Assembly (NCBI GenBank): GCA_934246625.1 | Contig: CAKQHZ010000001.1 | Location: 330,001-362,000 of the forward strand | Length of the DNA stretch: 32,000 nucleotides | From: an uncultured Alphaproteobacteria bacterium | Lineage (GTDB): Bacteria; Pseudomonadota; Alphaproteobacteria; Rs-D84; CACZYB01 | Direction of reading: 5' to 3' | In this document: positions 2,888 to 12,254 of the stretch, one piece after another | How the letters are laid out: every line of letters starts with the position of its first letter | Numbering within the stretch: position 1 is the first letter of the stretch | The notes under the pieces: model-generated | The model's input: the letters and a program-made list of their open reading frames with translations, nothing else | What the model was told of the DNA's origin: nothing | Databases searched by the model: none | Position numbers and translations under genes: made by a program

Positions 2888-3829
2888 TTATAATGTTTTT
2901 AAAAATTCTGTTATTGCTTCGGTTGAACCGATTGCTTGTGATGTTGCCTTGTCTGTGCATCTTTTGATAAGTCCAGAAAGAACATTGCCAGCACCAATTT
3001 CAACAAAGCTGTCAACACCCTTTGATACCATAAAGTCTACACATTCACGGAAACGAACACCATTTACCATTTGTTCTGATAAATGAAGTTTTATATCAGC
3101 AGATTCCATATCAATATTTGCTGTGCGGTTTGAAACAAATGGAACGACTGGAGTTTTTAACATTGTTTCAGAAAGAACATGACCTATTGTTATTCTTGCA
3201 GATTCCATCAATGGACAATGTGCAGGAATTGAAACAGGCAATACAACACATTTTTTTGCACCCATTTCCTTTGCAATTACAGATGCACGTTCAATTGCGT
3301 CCTTATGTCCACTTACAACAATTTGTCCTGGGCAGTTATCATTTGCAACGGAAACTTTTGATGTTTCAGTTGATGCCTTTTCACATGCTTCAAATACATG
3401 TTCAGAATCCAAACCAATGATTGCCATCATTGCACCAAGTCCAGCAGGAACCGCTTCTGCCATTGACTTTGCACGGATTTGTAAAAGTCTTGCTCCTGTT
3501 GAAAGAGGTATTGCACCACTTGCAACCAAAGCAGAATATTCACCCAAAGAATGACCACAAACAAAATTACATAAATCTTGAATTTTTTTGCCACTTTGTG
3601 ATTCAATCACCTTTAGGGTCGCAATACTCATAGTCATAAGTGCAACTTGTGTATTTTCTGTTTTGTTTAATGCTTCGGCATCATCACCAAAAATTATATT
3701 TGTAAGTTTATATGAGAGGGCTTCATCAACTTCTTCAAAAACTTCCTTTGCTTCGATAAAGTTTTCATATAAGTCTTGACCCATTTTTAATTTTTGAGAG
3801 CCTTGTCCTGGAAATAAAAAAGCACGCAT
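2888..3829 (-). CDS. fabD: malonyl-CoA:ACP transacylase
   Basis: 313 aa with N-terminal FPGQGSQ and the active-site GHSLGEYSAL motif. It shows fabD-fabG synteny. Confidence 0.92.
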   Translation of the reverse strand: MRAFLFPGQGSQKLKMGQDLYENFIEAKEVFEEVDEALSYKLTNIIFGDDAEALNKTENTQVALMTMSIATLKVIESQSGKKIQDLCNFVCGHSLGEYSALVASGAIPLSTGARLLQIRAKSMAEAVPAGLGAMMAIIGLDSEHVFEACEKASTETSKVSVANDNCPGQIVVSGHKDAIERASVIAKEMGAKKCVVLPVSIPAHCPLMESARITIGHVLSETMLKTPVVPFVSNRTANIDMESADIKLHLSEQMVNGVRFRECVDFMVSKGVDSFVEIGAGNVLSGLIKRCTDKATSQAIGSTEAITEFLKTL

Positions 3830-3856: not shown

Positions 3857-5122
3857 TTATAAATATTCTTTGCCATTCATATATGGACGAAGTTTTTCTG
3901 GAATTCGAACCTTTCCATCAGCTGTTTGATGATTTTCCAAAAATGGTGCAAGAATTCGAGGAGTTGCAATACCCGTGTTATTCAAAGTATAGCAATATTT
4001 TACCTTGTTTGTGCCATTTTCACGATAACGAATATTTGCACGTCTTGCTTGCCAATCTGTTAAATTTGAACAGCTGTGTGTTTCACGATATTTGTTTTGT
4101 GATGGAGTCCATGCTTCCAAATCATTCATTTTATATTTACCTAAACCCATATCACCAGTGCAACAATCAATTACCTGGTATGGAAGTTCCAAATCCTGTA
4201 AAACTTCTTCGGCTGTTGAAAGAAGGATTTCATACCATTTCTTACTTTCTGCTAAATCTGCTTTACAAATAACATATTGTTCAACCTTCATAAATTGGTG
4301 AAGACGGATAAGTCCGCGAACATCTTTTCCTGCGGAACCAGCTTCTCGTCTGAAACATGGTGAATAACCAGCATAAAGAATTGGAAGTTGAGATTCGTCA
4401 AGAATTTCATCTTTGTGAAGTGAAGTTAACACAATTTCAGCTGTGCCTGATAAATACATATTATCCTTTTCAAGATAGTATACATCTTCACGACCATCTG
4501 GGAAATGACCTGTGCCAAACAAGGCATCTTCGTTCACCATAGATGGAACTGTTATCATTGTGAAACCCTTTGCAGTTAATTTATCCATCATATACATGTG
4601 AAGTGCGATTTCCAAACGAGATGCAGCACCCTTTAATGAATAAGAACGTGAACCACAAACCTTTGCAACACGTTTGAAATCAGCCCAATTATTCATTTCA
4701 AGTAAATCATAGTGATCACGTGGTTCAAAATCAAATTTACGTGGTGTGCCAACTTTACGAATTACAACATTTTCACTGTCATCACGGCCAACAGGAACTT
4801 CGTCAGCAGGGATATTTGGCATACGCCATAACATATCTTCGTATTGTGGTTTTTTTGTTGAAAGTTCACTTTCATAAATGCTTATTTTATCAGAAAGTTC
4901 ACGTGAATTTTCAATAGCTTGTTTTTTTGCATCATCTTTAAGAGATGGAATTTGTGAAGTAATTGCGTTTTTTGCTTCTCTTAAATCTTGAAGTTTTTTA
5001 TTGATTTCAGAAATTTCTTCATCAAGTTTAAGCATTACATCAAGGTCAATATTAACATTTTTGTTTTTAATTGCCTTTTTTACAATATCTGGGTTTTCTC
5101 TTATAAATTTTATATCTAACAT
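3857..5122 (-). CDS. serS: seryl-tRNA synthetase
   Basis: 421 aa. MLDIKFIRENP start with an N-terminal coiled-coil arm. Class II core motifs are present (FRRE, GLIRLHQF, ...TLNNTGIATPR). Confidence 0.95.
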   Translation of the reverse strand: MLDIKFIRENPDIVKKAIKNKNVNIDLDVMLKLDEEISEINKKLQDLREAKNAITSQIPSLKDDAKKQAIENSRELSDKISIYESELSTKKPQYEDMLWRMPNIPADEVPVGRDDSENVVIRKVGTPRKFDFEPRDHYDLLEMNNWADFKRVAKVCGSRSYSLKGAASRLEIALHMYMMDKLTAKGFTMITVPSMVNEDALFGTGHFPDGREDVYYLEKDNMYLSGTAEIVLTSLHKDEILDESQLPILYAGYSPCFRREAGSAGKDVRGLIRLHQFMKVEQYVICKADLAESKKWYEILLSTAEEVLQDLELPYQVIDCCTGDMGLGKYKMNDLEAWTPSQNKYRETHSCSNLTDWQARRANIRYRENGTNKVKYCYTLNNTGIATPRILAPFLENHQTADGKVRIPEKLRPYMNGKEYL

Positions 5123-10078: not shown

Positions 10079-10675
10079 ATGCAAAAATCTGACGATATTC
10101 AAAATTTGATAAAAGCATTGTCTAAGATTCAGGGATTTGGAAACAGATCTGCTGTGCGTGCAACTATTAACCTTATATCAAACAAGGAAGAAAAACTTGA
10201 ACCATTGATTGATGCACTAACAAATGTTGCAAACAATATCAAAACTTGCCCTTGTTGTGGAAATTTTGATACGGTTTCTCCTTGTTCTATTTGCCAAGAT
10301 GTAAAGCGTGATGGAAAAACTTTATGTATTGTATCCGATATATCTTCTTTATGGGCAATGGAACGTGGAAATATTTTTAATGGAAAATATCATATCACTG
10401 GTGGAATTTTATCTGCAATAAATGGTATTGAACCAGACGATTTGAATCTTTCAAATTTGAAAAAACGAATCGAAGACGAAGGGATTGTTGAAGTTATTCT
10501 TGCTCTTCCTGCAACCATTGATGCAAAGATTACATCTCACTATATTATCAATCTTTTAAAAGACACAAATGTAAAGATTACCGAGCTTGCACACGGAGTT
10601 CCATTGGGTGGAGAACTTGACTATTTAGATGAGGGAACTATCGGTGAAGCAATCAAGCAAAGAAAACTTATATAA
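10079..10675 (+). CDS. recR: recombination protein RecR
   Basis: 198 aa with an HhH region (GFGNRSAVRA), a C4 zinc finger CPCCGNFDTVSPCSIC, and a Toprim-like core. Confidence 0.93.
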   Translation: MQKSDDIQNLIKALSKIQGFGNRSAVRATINLISNKEEKLEPLIDALTNVANNIKTCPCCGNFDTVSPCSICQDVKRDGKTLCIVSDISSLWAMERGNIFNGKYHITGGILSAINGIEPDDLNLSNLKKRIEDEGIVEVILALPATIDAKITSHYIINLLKDTNVKITELAHGVPLGGELDYLDEGTIGEAIKQRKLI

Positions 10676-10683
10676 ATAAATTA

Positions 10684-10712
10684 TTTACAAATCTATAAAT
10701 TGATGTTAAATT
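10684..10712 (+). promoter_or_regulatory. possible sigma70-type promoter for the structured leader
   Basis: TTTACA (10684-10689), 17-nt spacer, TAAATT (10707-10712). AT-rich background makes chance matches likely. Confidence 0.25.
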
Positions 10713-10746
10713 ATTTCTAGCATTGTGAGAACTGTGCTAGGGATTA

Positions 10747-10895
10747 GAACCCCTTTCATCAATAGTTGGAAAGCTATATCTTTCCTGTCGTTTCCCCTTT
10801 GGGGAGGACGGCATTATAAGGCTATGCACGAAAGTGCCGTGCCATTTTGATGATGGTGTTCTAAACTCCCCATTAAAAATAAAAGGGAGAAAAAA
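10747..10895 (+). promoter_or_regulatory. GC-rich structured 5' leader (four-way junction plus anti-SD/SD platform), unassigned class
   Basis: By-eye fold. P1: 10747-10750 and 10756-10762 pair with 10847-10853 and 10858-10861. P2: GGAAAG 10768-10773 / CTTTCC 10780-10785. P3: 10786-10797 / 10801-10810 (UCCCC-UUU-GGGGA). P4: 10820-10843 with GCAC-GAAA-GUGC. CUCCCC 10866-10871 is complementary to both GGGGAG 10801-10806 and the SD GGGAG 10885-10889. Confidence 0.5.
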
Positions 10896-11312
10896 ATGAA
10901 CAACAAATCAAAAGTCTTTTTAATATCTACAATTCTTTGTGGAGTATTATCTTTAAAAGCAAATTCTTCTACATTAAATGATATTTTATCAAAATATTGT
11001 GTGCCAACTGTTGGCAACTGCGATAAAAAAGCAACCTATAACACCTCTGGCAATTATTGTGATTGTGGAAATAAAGACAAATTTTACAACTTATCAACTC
11101 GAATTTGTGAAAATTGTATCTTTGGTTCCTTTGCAAGTGATAATTACAAAACTTGTGAACCTATAAGATGCCCAACAGGGTATGTCGCCACACTTATAAT
11201 TGATGGGAAATGTCCTTATGGGTATAGGTTAACTCAAATCTATACACCAAATACCTTTTGGAATGGAACTGAACTTAAAACATATAATTTTTCAAAAAAA
11301 ACATTTAACTAA
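10896..11312 (+). CDS. small secreted cysteine-rich protein (signal peptide, CxxC-type repeat)
   Basis: 138 aa. N-terminal signal-like MNNKSKVFLISTILCGVLSLKANS. Nine Cys in the mature part, including a CENCIFGSFASDNYKTCEP...CPTGY pattern. Strong SD GGGAGA lies 6 nt upstream. Confidence 0.7.
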   Translation: MNNKSKVFLISTILCGVLSLKANSSTLNDILSKYCVPTVGNCDKKATYNTSGNYCDCGNKDKFYNLSTRICENCIFGSFASDNYKTCEPIRCPTGYVATLIIDGKCPYGYRLTQIYTPNTFWNGTELKTYNFSKKTFN

Positions 11313-11321
11313 ATAAAGTTT

Positions 11322-11423
11322 GGGGTTGAAGTTTTTTCGTCCATGGTCTTCACTTCAACCTCTCCCGAATTGCTGTTTTATGAGGGAAGACAGCAAAGTA
11401 TAACCCCCTCAAAGGAGAAAAAT
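11322..11423 (+). promoter_or_regulatory. structured intergenic leader/attenuator upstream of second Cys-rich gene
   Basis: 11-bp stem 11322-11332 / 11352-11362 with a 19-nt loop. Hairpin TTGCTGT 11370-11376 / ACAGCAA 11390-11396 presents GAGGGA (11382-11387) in its loop. C-tracts UCUCCC 11361-11366 and CCCCCUC 11404-11410 are complementary to that G-tract; UCUCC is also complementary to the SD GGAGA (11414-11418). Confidence 0.4.
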
Positions 11424-12254
11424 ATGAAGATAATGAATAAACTTAATATTGCAATACTTGGGATTAGTGGAGTGATTTCCAATCCTGTTTTTGCACAAAA
11501 ATTTTATCAATGCTTACCAATAAAATGTTCTGATGGTCAATATTTAGATGGAAGTAATTGTAAAAGTTGCCCAAAGGGATTTGAATGCAAAAATAATCAA
11601 AAAACCGCTTGTAGAAGTGGATTTTATGCAAACAAAGAAGGTATGGCAAATTGCAAATCTTGTAATGGTTTTTCATCAAATGCAAATGCCCAATATTGTT
11701 TTGGTAAAAAAGAATTTGCCCTTGGAACTTATACACTTACAATTCCTGCTGGCAAATGGAAAGCAACTATTCGTGGGGGCTATCCATGGTATGTGGATAT
11801 GTTAGGTAATTATGGACATAAAGTTAGTTCTGGATTTGGTGCAACGTTAGTAAAATACTTTACCTTAGAACAAGAAGAACAAATCAAAATTATCGTTGGT
11901 AAAAAAACTTGTGGAGGTGGCGGAAAATATTCTTCAAATGGTGAAGATTCAAGTATAGAACTTTTAACAAAATCAGGTGGTGGAGTTTCTGGTATTACAA
12001 GGGTAAATAAACTTATCGCTGGTGGTGGAAAAGTTAACCCTAAAGAAGAGGATTTATCAAAACTTAATGGTCAATGCGAATATTCTGGATTATCACTTAA
12101 TTCCTCAATAGGGGAAAAATGTTATCATGAAGTTTCAAATTCAAATGAAGTTTTTGATGAAATAATAAAACAAAAGTTAGGTTATAGCACTAGGTTAGGC
12201 GATGGTGGCTGTGGTGTGTTTGATGGAAAAGTCGTTTTGGAACTTATAAACTAA
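11424..12254 (+). CDS. secreted protein: ephrin-receptor/TNFR-like CxxC repeats plus glycine-rich (ALK GlyR-like) domain
   Basis: I prefer the ATG at 11424 (SD AAAGGAG upstream) because it yields the signal peptide MKIMNKLNIAILGISGVISNPVFAQ. The track's start at 11343 would translate the structured leader. Repeats: CKSCPKGFEC...CRSGFYANKEGMANCKSC. C-terminal region: GATLVKYFTLEQEEQIKIIVGKK..GGGG..LIAGGGK..GGCGVFDGKVVLELI. Confidence 0.75.
   Translation: MKIMNKLNIAILGISGVISNPVFAQKFYQCLPIKCSDGQYLDGSNCKSCPKGFECKNNQKTACRSGFYANKEGMANCKSCNGFSSNANAQYCFGKKEFALGTYTLTIPAGKWKATIRGGYPWYVDMLGNYGHKVSSGFGATLVKYFTLEQEEQIKIIVGKKTCGGGGKYSSNGEDSSIELLTKSGGGVSGITRVNKLIAGGGKVNPKEEDLSKLNGQCEYSGLSLNSSIGEKCYHEVSNSNEVFDEIIKQKLGYSTRLGDGGCGVFDGKVVLELIN

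Follow-up and report, generated by a model that had tools for sequence, protein, structure and literature searches.

A four-way-junction RNA of approximately 135 nucleotides (nt) lies between recR and the next open reading frame (ORF) in a 32-kb stretch of contig CAKQHZ010000001.1 from an uncultured alphaproteobacterium (the whole stretch is referred to here as the window), and it is a real, conserved, and previously undescribed cis-regulatory leader RNA. The junction spans positions 10738 to 10874 of the + strand, within the 5' leader of a gene for a secreted cysteine-rich (Cys-rich) protein; recR has its stop codon at 10675, and 10896 is the first position of the next ORF. With moderate confidence, we favor the view that the element is the sensor and gate of this leader, governing translation initiation of the Cys-rich gene or its operon. 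The element was initially pointed out by a reader who folded the region by eye (the original prediction), and the coordinates given there for helices P1 to P4, CUCCCC, GGGGAG, and GGGAG all agree with the sequence, as does the 220-nt length of the gap.

The closed multistem junction drawn by eye was reproduced by RNAfold (ViennaRNA), with the same fold, as the minimum free energy (MFE) structure of 10720-10895 (+), in which the junction is followed by a 3' hairpin pairing CUCCC with GGGAG of the Shine-Dalgarno sequence. At -61.6 kcal/mol, this region was far more stable than 200 dinucleotide shuffles (-40.6 ± 4.1 kcal/mol; z = -5.1), none of which was as stable, so that the shuffle comparison proposed in the original prediction came out in favor of structure. 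The reverse strand was less stable (-53.5 kcal/mol; z = -4.3). The limits of P1 needed revision: the pairing of 10747-10762 with 10847-10861 is present, but the helix actually reaches 10744-10762 and 10847-10864. The features of the leader are as follows.

10684 to 10712, + strand: sigma-70-like promoter from a promoter scan, with -35 TTTACA, a 17-nt spacer, and a TG-extended -10 TAAATT
10719 to 10738, + strand: P0, the 5'-terminal leader hairpin (AGCAUUGUgagaACUGUGCU), predicted here in 8 of 8 variants
10740 to 10743, + strand: invariant 5' GGGA, whose partner in the proposed on state would be the anti-Shine-Dalgarno UCCC at 10867-10870, lengthening P1
10744 to 10762, + strand: P1 5' strand, composed of P1a UUAGAAC, P1b CC, and P1c UCAUCAA (MFE fold and both-side changes)
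10768 to 10785, + strand: P2 hairpin GGAAAG-CUAUAU-CUUUCC, with both-side changes at 6 of 6 pairs
10786 to 10813, + strand: P3 hairpin UGUCGUUUCCCC-UUU-GGGGA(G)GACGGCA, with GGGGAG on the 3' side invariant
10814 to 10819, + strand: J3/4 strand UUAUAA, which makes the invariant block AUAAGGC with the GGC that opens P4
10820 to 10843, + strand: P4 hairpin GGC-UAU-GCAC-GAAA-GUGC-CGU-GCC, with an internal loop and a GAAA tetraloop (10830-10833), predicted in all variants
10847 to 10864, + strand: P1 3' strand UUGAUGA-U-GG-U-GUUCUAA (MFE fold and both-side changes)
10866 to 10871, + strand: anti-Shine-Dalgarno CUCCCC, invariant in 8 of 8 variants, with the Shine-Dalgarno or the 5' GGGA as partner
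10885 to 10898, + strand: Shine-Dalgarno GGGAG (10885-10889), 6-nt spacer, and ATG at 10896, read from the sequence
10896 to 11312, + strand: the regulated gene, coding for the 138-amino-acid (aa) Cys-rich protein (ORF list)

The element stands out in base composition, with a GC fraction of 0.45 to 0.47 in 100-nt windows compared to 0.32 for the window as a whole and 0.24 for the adjacent spacer. It ranks in the top 1% of 100-nt windows, otherwise made up of three tRNAs and a few coding segments; among noncoding DNA, only the tRNAs are thus comparable. The original prediction was right about the GC richness; its statement that only tRNAs and terminators look similar is to be read as tRNAs and a few coding segments.

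The AT-rich spacer around the promoter diverges, but the -35 box TTTACA and its 17-nt spacing are kept in all loci with the junction (type A) and in two loci with a different leader described below (type B; L087 and L089). By its match to the promoter consensus, transcription likely starts at about 10719-10720, the first base of P0. The predicted, conserved promoter is upstream of the junction; a start downstream of 10862, considered in the original prediction, would have left the junction outside the mRNA. From the junction to the ORF, the scan detected no promoter-like site. Judged as an intrinsic terminator or attenuator, i.e., a GC-rich hairpin with a conserved U-tract, the element does not qualify: no conserved U-tract follows any hairpin, P0 and the junction included, and none lies as a terminator between the junction and the ORF. 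The terminator-like matches were P2 and P4 only, with U runs that are not conserved (after P4, UU in L101 and UUU in others), and the Shine-Dalgarno hairpin is followed by A's. With a promoter upstream, none after the junction, and no conserved U-tract, the junction most likely lies within the mRNA leader.

Conservation and covariation among relatives

A RecR protein of identical sequence is present in many human-gut assemblies and metagenome-assembled genomes (MAGs) labelled Alphaproteobacteria bacterium, and the intergenic region is identical in six loci of the same species. A covariance model, R1, was built from the window element and applied to the fetched loci of RecR relatives, yielding six further distinct full-length versions downstream of recR (L007, L090, L091, L093, L095, and L097; RecR 90 to 93% identical) and one fragment truncated at a contig end (L096). 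A divergent copy, L101 (45 bits; E = 2e-9; fold stability z = -6.2 against shuffles), was located via the loci of downstream-protein homologs. This copy is not near recR; it adjoins a divergently transcribed glycosyltransferase gene and immediately precedes a gene whose product is a homolog, 60% identical, of the Cys-rich protein. The layout of the leader is retained in L101 (-35 TTTACA, 17-nt spacer, -10, P0, junction, CCUCCCC, GGGAG, and ATGAAC). Since it is away from recR and again precedes a Cys-rich homolog, the element belongs to the Cys-rich gene and not to recR. A Cys-rich homolog is found downstream wherever the contig is long enough (window, L007, L095, L097, and L101). The search in relatives suggested in the original prediction has thus provided seven further distinct versions in related MAGs, and in the window and at each locus the element is present as a single copy, with constant orientation and distance to the downstream start codon. 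Two properties expected of a riboswitch are present, namely, a conserved structured domain in a 5' untranslated leader and recurrent association with one gene family, the latter in two genomic contexts and over a small lineage breadth.

Between genomes, the element is 80 to 85% identical, compared to 35 to 57% (near saturation) at four-fold-like third positions of recR in these genomes, which argues for strong purifying selection; recR itself, at 76 to 83%, is below the element. Approximately 60% of the 135 nt is invariant, including unpaired junction and loop residues (AUAAGGC, CGU, GAAA, and GAUGG). Unpaired blocks unchanged even in L101 are AUAAGGC (the same in 8 of 8 variants), the CGU side of the P4 loop, GCNCGAAA, and GAUGG, and the block GUGAUGGU/GAUGG of the P1 3' strand is invariant across all variants. 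The signature GGGGAG-N4-GC-N3-ATAAGGC-N3-10-GCNCGAAA matches all type A loci.

Covariation, also suggested in the original prediction, was assessed in alignment A6, which comprises eight distinct sequences (the window, six recR-linked versions, and L101) and 44 pairs. Standard pairs filled 97.7% of the pair cells, and 16 of the 44 pairs changed on both sides. As a control, 3' partners slid by 1 to 3 columns gave 44 to 52% pairing and 0 to 5 both-side-changed pairs, and none of 500 column shuffles reached the observed covariation score. The covarying helices are P1a, P1c, P2, and the lower half of P3. Three pairs of P1a change on both sides in L101 (CACAAA/UUUGUG), as do three of P1c among the variants; P2 reads GGAAAU/AUUUCC in L007 and AGUAG/CUACU in L101. 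Both-side changes affect 4 of the 12 pairs of P3 (in L101, its lower stem reads GAGCUA/UAGCUC), and the upper stem keeps its pairing via C-to-U changes that give G-U wobbles, workable on the + strand only. The P0 stems are nearly unrelated in sequence (AUACUGC/GCAGUAU in L007, GUUCUAU/AUAGAAC in L097, GAUUCCGC/GCGGGAUU in L090, and AUACUUG/CAAGUAU in L101). P4 is invariant except for one G-C to G-U change and hence is without covariation support, while in L101 its inner stem is swapped for UAACU/AGUUA with a larger loop that still holds GCGAAA; for P4, P1b, and the P1 extension, the support is thermodynamic stability and conservation.

The same data indicate which strand is read. Model scores were 142 to 174 bits on the + strand and 19 to 22 bits on the - strand, and several conserved G-U pairs would become A-C on the opposite strand, both pointing to an RNA read from the + strand. 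Minus-strand ORFs over the element (67 and 66 aa) have nothing in common beyond the conserved RNA block read in reverse complement and were rejected as not coding. A J1/2:L2 pseudoknot can be drawn in 8 of 8 sequences (UAG:CUA; UAC:GUA in L007; AAU:AUU in L101); it is not significant by itself (shuffle frequencies of 0.05 to 0.7) and is taken as a hint only. Another possible tertiary contact, likewise no more than a hint, would be docking of the P4 GAAA loop into P1 at its invariant CC/GG internal-loop region.

Among relatives with RecR 74 to 87% identical (L008, L009, L010, and L087 to L089), no element was found downstream of recR with filters off; 76 more distant Alphaproteobacteria also lacked it in this position, and a search with R1 of the same region in 80 other alphaproteobacterial genomes gave no match. 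In sister lineages, orthologs of the same Cys-rich gene are preceded instead by a leader of approximately 270 to 290 nt that is unrelated to the four-way-junction type.

L087 3143-3428, L088 3143-3400, L089 1343-1634, L010 4648-4925, and L103 2716-3003: type B leader

The type B leader has the promoter and 5' hairpin layout of type A, and GUAUCAG/CUGAUAU forms a long-range closing helix. Further features are an internal hairpin that resembles a terminator and runs into U7, a second hairpin with CCCC..GGUUGGGGAG, and CAUACAAYAGG as a conserved block. For this leader, 55 pairs were obtained with RNAalifold, 14 of them with compensatory changes; neither Rfam nor model R2 gave a match. Homology of the two types was rejected, as no significant local alignment was obtained and the sole shared sequence is the 8-mer UUGGGGAG.

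A proposed translational switch and its alternatives

Under the favored model of a sensor-plus-gate leader, transcription from the TTTACA-17-TAAATT promoter would begin at about 10719, and the RNA would fold into the 5' hairpin P0 and the four-way junction P1-P4. The CUCCCC tail directly 3' of P1 would have two mutually exclusive partners. In the off state, it would pair with the Shine-Dalgarno GGGAG, blocking the 30S subunit; in the on state, it would pair with the invariant 5' GGGA and stack on P1 as an extension, leaving the Shine-Dalgarno free. Stabilization of the junction and P1, for instance by a small-molecule ligand, by a metal ion, or by protein binding, would lead to capture of the anti-Shine-Dalgarno and thereby turn translation on.

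The two states are found in silico. In the MFE structure of the full leader, CUCCCC pairs with GGGAG at 10885-10889, in line with its sequestering role in the original prediction. When the Shine-Dalgarno was forced open, the best structure in 7 of 7 recR-linked variants was the P1-extended junction, 0.4 to 2.1 kcal/mol above the MFE, and forcing GGGA (10740-10743):UCCC (10867-10870) in the full window leader cost 1.3 kcal/mol with the junction intact. The P1-extended form is itself the MFE for the isolated core (window and L007) and for the L101 leader cut at the start codon. Because the two states are nearly isoenergetic, anything that stabilizes the junction and P1 would switch translation on. 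The arrangement of CUCCCC, 5' GGGA, and Shine-Dalgarno/ATG is retained in all variants, with ATGAAC in 7 of 8. The fold, its conservation and covariation, its association with the gene family, and its bistability in silico are shown; we infer that the leader switches, that stabilization turns it on, and that it responds to an effector.

This model corrects the one put forward originally. The complementarities noted there, i.e., of CUCCCC to both GGGGAG and GGGAG and of ACGGCA to UGCCGU, exist in the sequence, but as switches they are costly: pairing of CUCCCC with GGGGAG of P3 lies 7.8 kcal/mol above the MFE, and the ACGGCA:UGCCGU alternative that destroys P3 and P4 lies 5.4 kcal/mol above it. 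The simpler competitor GGGA:UCCC had been missed.

Several points weigh against the switch. Its helices, GGGA:UCCC and CUCCC:GGGAG, are invariant (8 of 8), which puts them beyond covariation testing, and energy differences of 1 to 2 kcal/mol fall within the error of the nearest-neighbor model. Alignment A6 was fitted to the model and represents only about five independent lineages, and the transcription start rests on a promoter consensus match. The distribution is narrow, being confined to genomes with RecR at least 90% identical plus L101, and two pattern scans of Joint Genome Institute (JGI) metagenomes, with patterns stricter than the signature above, gave 0 matches. In the window, L097, and L101, the ATG of the element is that of the Cys-rich gene itself; in L007, L090, L091, and L095, its Shine-Dalgarno/ATG opens an ORF of 33 to 34 codons instead, which is followed by a second hairpin-plus-Shine-Dalgarno module and then by the Cys-rich gene. 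Finally, the regulated protein offers no basis for proposing a ligand.

Within the sensor-plus-gate explanation, a true small-molecule riboswitch is plausible but unlikely in our estimate, and direct ligand binding is putative. We set its probability lower because the range is narrow and an unrelated leader replaces the element in sister lineages; riboswitch classes seldom have so narrow a known range, which nevertheless does not disqualify the element. It is more doubtful still that a new riboswitch class has type A as its aptamer and that type B is a second, structurally distinct class responding to the same signal, both serving one secreted Cys-rich family.

Of the other explanations, the one we take most seriously, while still considering it unlikely, is a constitutive structured leader that senses nothing, whose 5' hairpin and junction protect the mRNA from 5'-end-dependent decay and whose partial occlusion of the Shine-Dalgarno sets translation at a fixed low level. 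The P0 hairpin at the predicted 5' end of all variants, the lack of an informative ligand-related gene context, the narrow, lineage-specific family, and the type B leader before the orthologous gene in relatives, which suggests rapid turnover, would all fit. A hairpin alone would suffice for stabilization, yet approximately 60% of the 135 nt is invariant despite saturated synonymous sites, and even L101 retains the three partners GGGA / CUCCCC / GGGAG. It is improbable that the junction is an independent or processed small RNA, trans-acting or protein-sequestering, that has its own promoter and merely shares a transcript with the ORF. Such an RNA would account for the conserved promoter, for conservation of the junction ahead of either the Cys-rich gene or the 33- to 34-codon ORF, and for several GGA/GGGA motifs resembling the sites of GGA-binding regulators. 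Against it, no intrinsic terminator or conserved U-tract follows the junction, and at every locus, L101 included, the junction is conserved as one unit together with the anti-Shine-Dalgarno, Shine-Dalgarno, and start codon.

Temperature control, which the original prediction had entertained, is not favored by the folding predictions. An RNA thermometer would be a weak CUCCC:GGGAG hairpin melting at host temperature to release the Shine-Dalgarno, and the hairpin is indeed short (5 bp, with a large A/U loop) and the organisms host-associated; the predicted mean unpaired probability of the Shine-Dalgarno changes little from 25°C to 42°C, increasing from 0.09 to 0.18 in the window and from 0.29 to 0.40 in others such as L090, a thermometer would not need a sequence-invariant four-way junction, and no match of the ROSE, fourU, or cspA type was obtained in Rfam, leaving this explanation with little credibility. 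Least credible, and largely refuted, is a repeated or mobile palindromic element, like repetitive extragenic palindromic (REP) sequences or miniature inverted-repeat transposable elements (MITEs), or a recR terminator or 3' untranslated region. In its favor, each of the two strands has a stable fold (z = -5.1 for + and -4.3 for -), several assemblies break in or just after the locus (L096, L099, L100, L101, and L102), and L101 provides a second context. The element is nevertheless present once in the 32-kb window and once per locus, with no terminal repeats in the flanks as judged by eye, no matches in viral contigs, a fixed orientation and distance to the start codon, and strand-specific scoring and G-U pairs. 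As for a recR terminator or 3' untranslated region, the promoter separates the element from recR, the L101 copy is not near any recR gene, and no U-tract follows P0 or the junction.

Comparison with known RNAs

The original prediction had found no known family for the element, and none emerged from Rfam 15 (4,227 covariance models, including SRP, 6S, tmRNA, yybP-ykoY, NiCo, cobalamin, c-di-GMP-I/II, ROSE, and ribosomal-protein leaders), which was searched at gathering score with the window and eight loci and by sensitive local scans with the window, L090/L091/L097, L101, and L103. At gathering score, no family matched the element, and three tRNAs alone passed in the window. The best overlapping local match, JA03, scored 24.8 bits against a gathering score of 44 and aligns mainly AT-rich flanks; among the weak matches, no family recurs between the window, L090/L091/L097, and L101. 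The SRP RNA gene ffs often neighbors dnaX-recR; SRP RNA was rejected for the element, as there was no model match and no helix-8 motif. A tRNA-like or tmRNA identity was likewise rejected, since ARAGORN found the three window tRNAs only.

In its proposed mechanism, the element is like add of Vibrio vulnificus, a translational on adenine riboswitch with a three-way purine aptamer, a known ligand, and a wide distribution. Both have a junction closed by P1 and a 3' flank competing for the Shine-Dalgarno region, so that stabilization on the P1 side frees, or in the element would free, the ribosome-binding site, and in both the two states are close in energy. The element differs in its four-way junction, its narrow range, and the lack of sequence or covariance-model similarity to any Rfam riboswitch. 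With the yybP-ykoY Mn2+, NiCo/czcD, and cobalamin riboswitches, it shares four helices at one junction, conserved internal-loop and junction nucleotides, and a place in the 5' leader, and its GGGGAGU run superficially resembles the conserved GGGGAGUAG of yybP-ykoY. None of these three matched even at E ≤ 10 in a 400-nt search; GGGGAG of the element is the 3' strand of a simple hairpin, and the regulated genes are not transporters. Other conserved blocks of these families, such as the B12 box and GAGAC / UUGACA, are not evident by eye in the element. Likeness to c-di-GMP-I (GEMM) lies in the secreted or surface protein genes and in a GNRA tetraloop that could dock in a helix receptor; there is no covariance-model match, and GEMM has two hairpins on a three-way junction whereas the element is a closed four-way junction. 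The ROSE and fourU thermometers also hold the Shine-Dalgarno in a short 3'-end hairpin of a multihairpin leader; they are without a closed, sequence-invariant junction, and the element has small predicted temperature sensitivity and no Rfam match to them.

The element resembles orphan motifs from comparative genomics of microbiomes, such as those of Fremin and Bhatt (2021; PMC8040213), in being supported by covariation and coming from uncultured gut bacteria. Its core strings were not found in 200 of the 408 supplementary files of that paper, which does not fully exclude a prior listing.

If the switch model is true, the element would represent an undescribed cis-regulatory RNA family with a clean on-switch architecture in gut bacteria that have no cultured model. 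The secreted Cys-rich proteins and the clustered genes with ephrin-receptor/TNFR-like repeats are plausible host-interaction factors. The identity of the effector would tell what these bacteria sense before exporting Cys-rich proteins and could bring a ligand or an aptamer fold that is new among riboswitches. With an unrelated type B leader before orthologous genes, the locus also offers a natural experiment in regulatory-RNA turnover.

The Cys-rich gene and its surroundings

The 138-aa product contains many cysteines and resembles a signal peptide at its N-terminus. It matches no Pfam family at threshold, and its homologs form 5 clusters among 5.8 billion proteins. An AlphaFold2 model was rejected as too poor for use (mean predicted local distance difference test score of 45).

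The 33- to 34-codon ORF starts from ATGAAC in L090 (2176-2280), L091 (2227-2328), L095 (3326-3430), and L007 (4809-4910), e.g., MNIQNKKTKHSNKTTQQQSKIGSYFWGGAFVTCK, and is absent from the window, L097, and L101. Its length is kept despite divergence, and a C-terminal hydrophobic patch F-W-G/S-G-x-F is shared (G-F-F in L007). It could be a small protein, a leader peptide, or the remnant of a rearrangement.

In the window, the stretch between the 138-aa gene and the next Cys-rich gene (11320-11426) holds a hairpin formed by GGGGUUGAAGU, loop UUUUUCGUCCAUGGUCUUC, and ACUUCAACCUC, with a UCCC end; a Shine-Dalgarno AAAGGAG and an ATG at 11424 come next. Similar hairpins with the conserved loop UUCAURGUCUU precede genes in L007 (approximately 4933-4975), L090 (approximately 2330-2375), and L095 (approximately 3469-3512). 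This intercistronic hairpin looks like a candidate second anti-Shine-Dalgarno device or binding site. The genes after the 138-aa gene code for secreted Cys-rich proteins with ephrin-receptor-like/TNFR-like CxxCxxGxY repeats (window 11424-12254, L007 5717-6253, and L103 3546-4073). The Pfam family Ephrin_rec_like matches the 178-aa protein of L007 with an E value of 5e-16 and is weak in the window. Such repeats are eukaryote-like and are found here in a gut alphaproteobacterium.

Two further GC-rich stretches were seen near these loci. A weak second R1 match (26 bits) at L095 4038-4172 on the - strand is unrelated in architecture: it is a long GC-rich palindromic hairpin (GGCCAUCCCCC...GGGGGAUGGCC in an AU-rich stem) between two Cys-rich genes, with z = -3.9 on the - strand. 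Downstream of recR in a relative with 82% identity, L008 4620-4860 contains a different GC-rich stretch, GGGGGGGUUGUGUGG...CUCCCCCACUCC..., for which no Rfam match at gathering score and no match to model R2 were obtained.

Several contigs end at the leader or close to it: L096 ends in P4, L099 and L100 end in P0, and L101 and L102 end 60 to 140 nt past the Cys-rich gene. Such breaks at the leader and Cys-rich cluster in independent assemblies suggest either a repeat, e.g., more than one copy of the leader or hairpin in a genome, or structural variation among strains.

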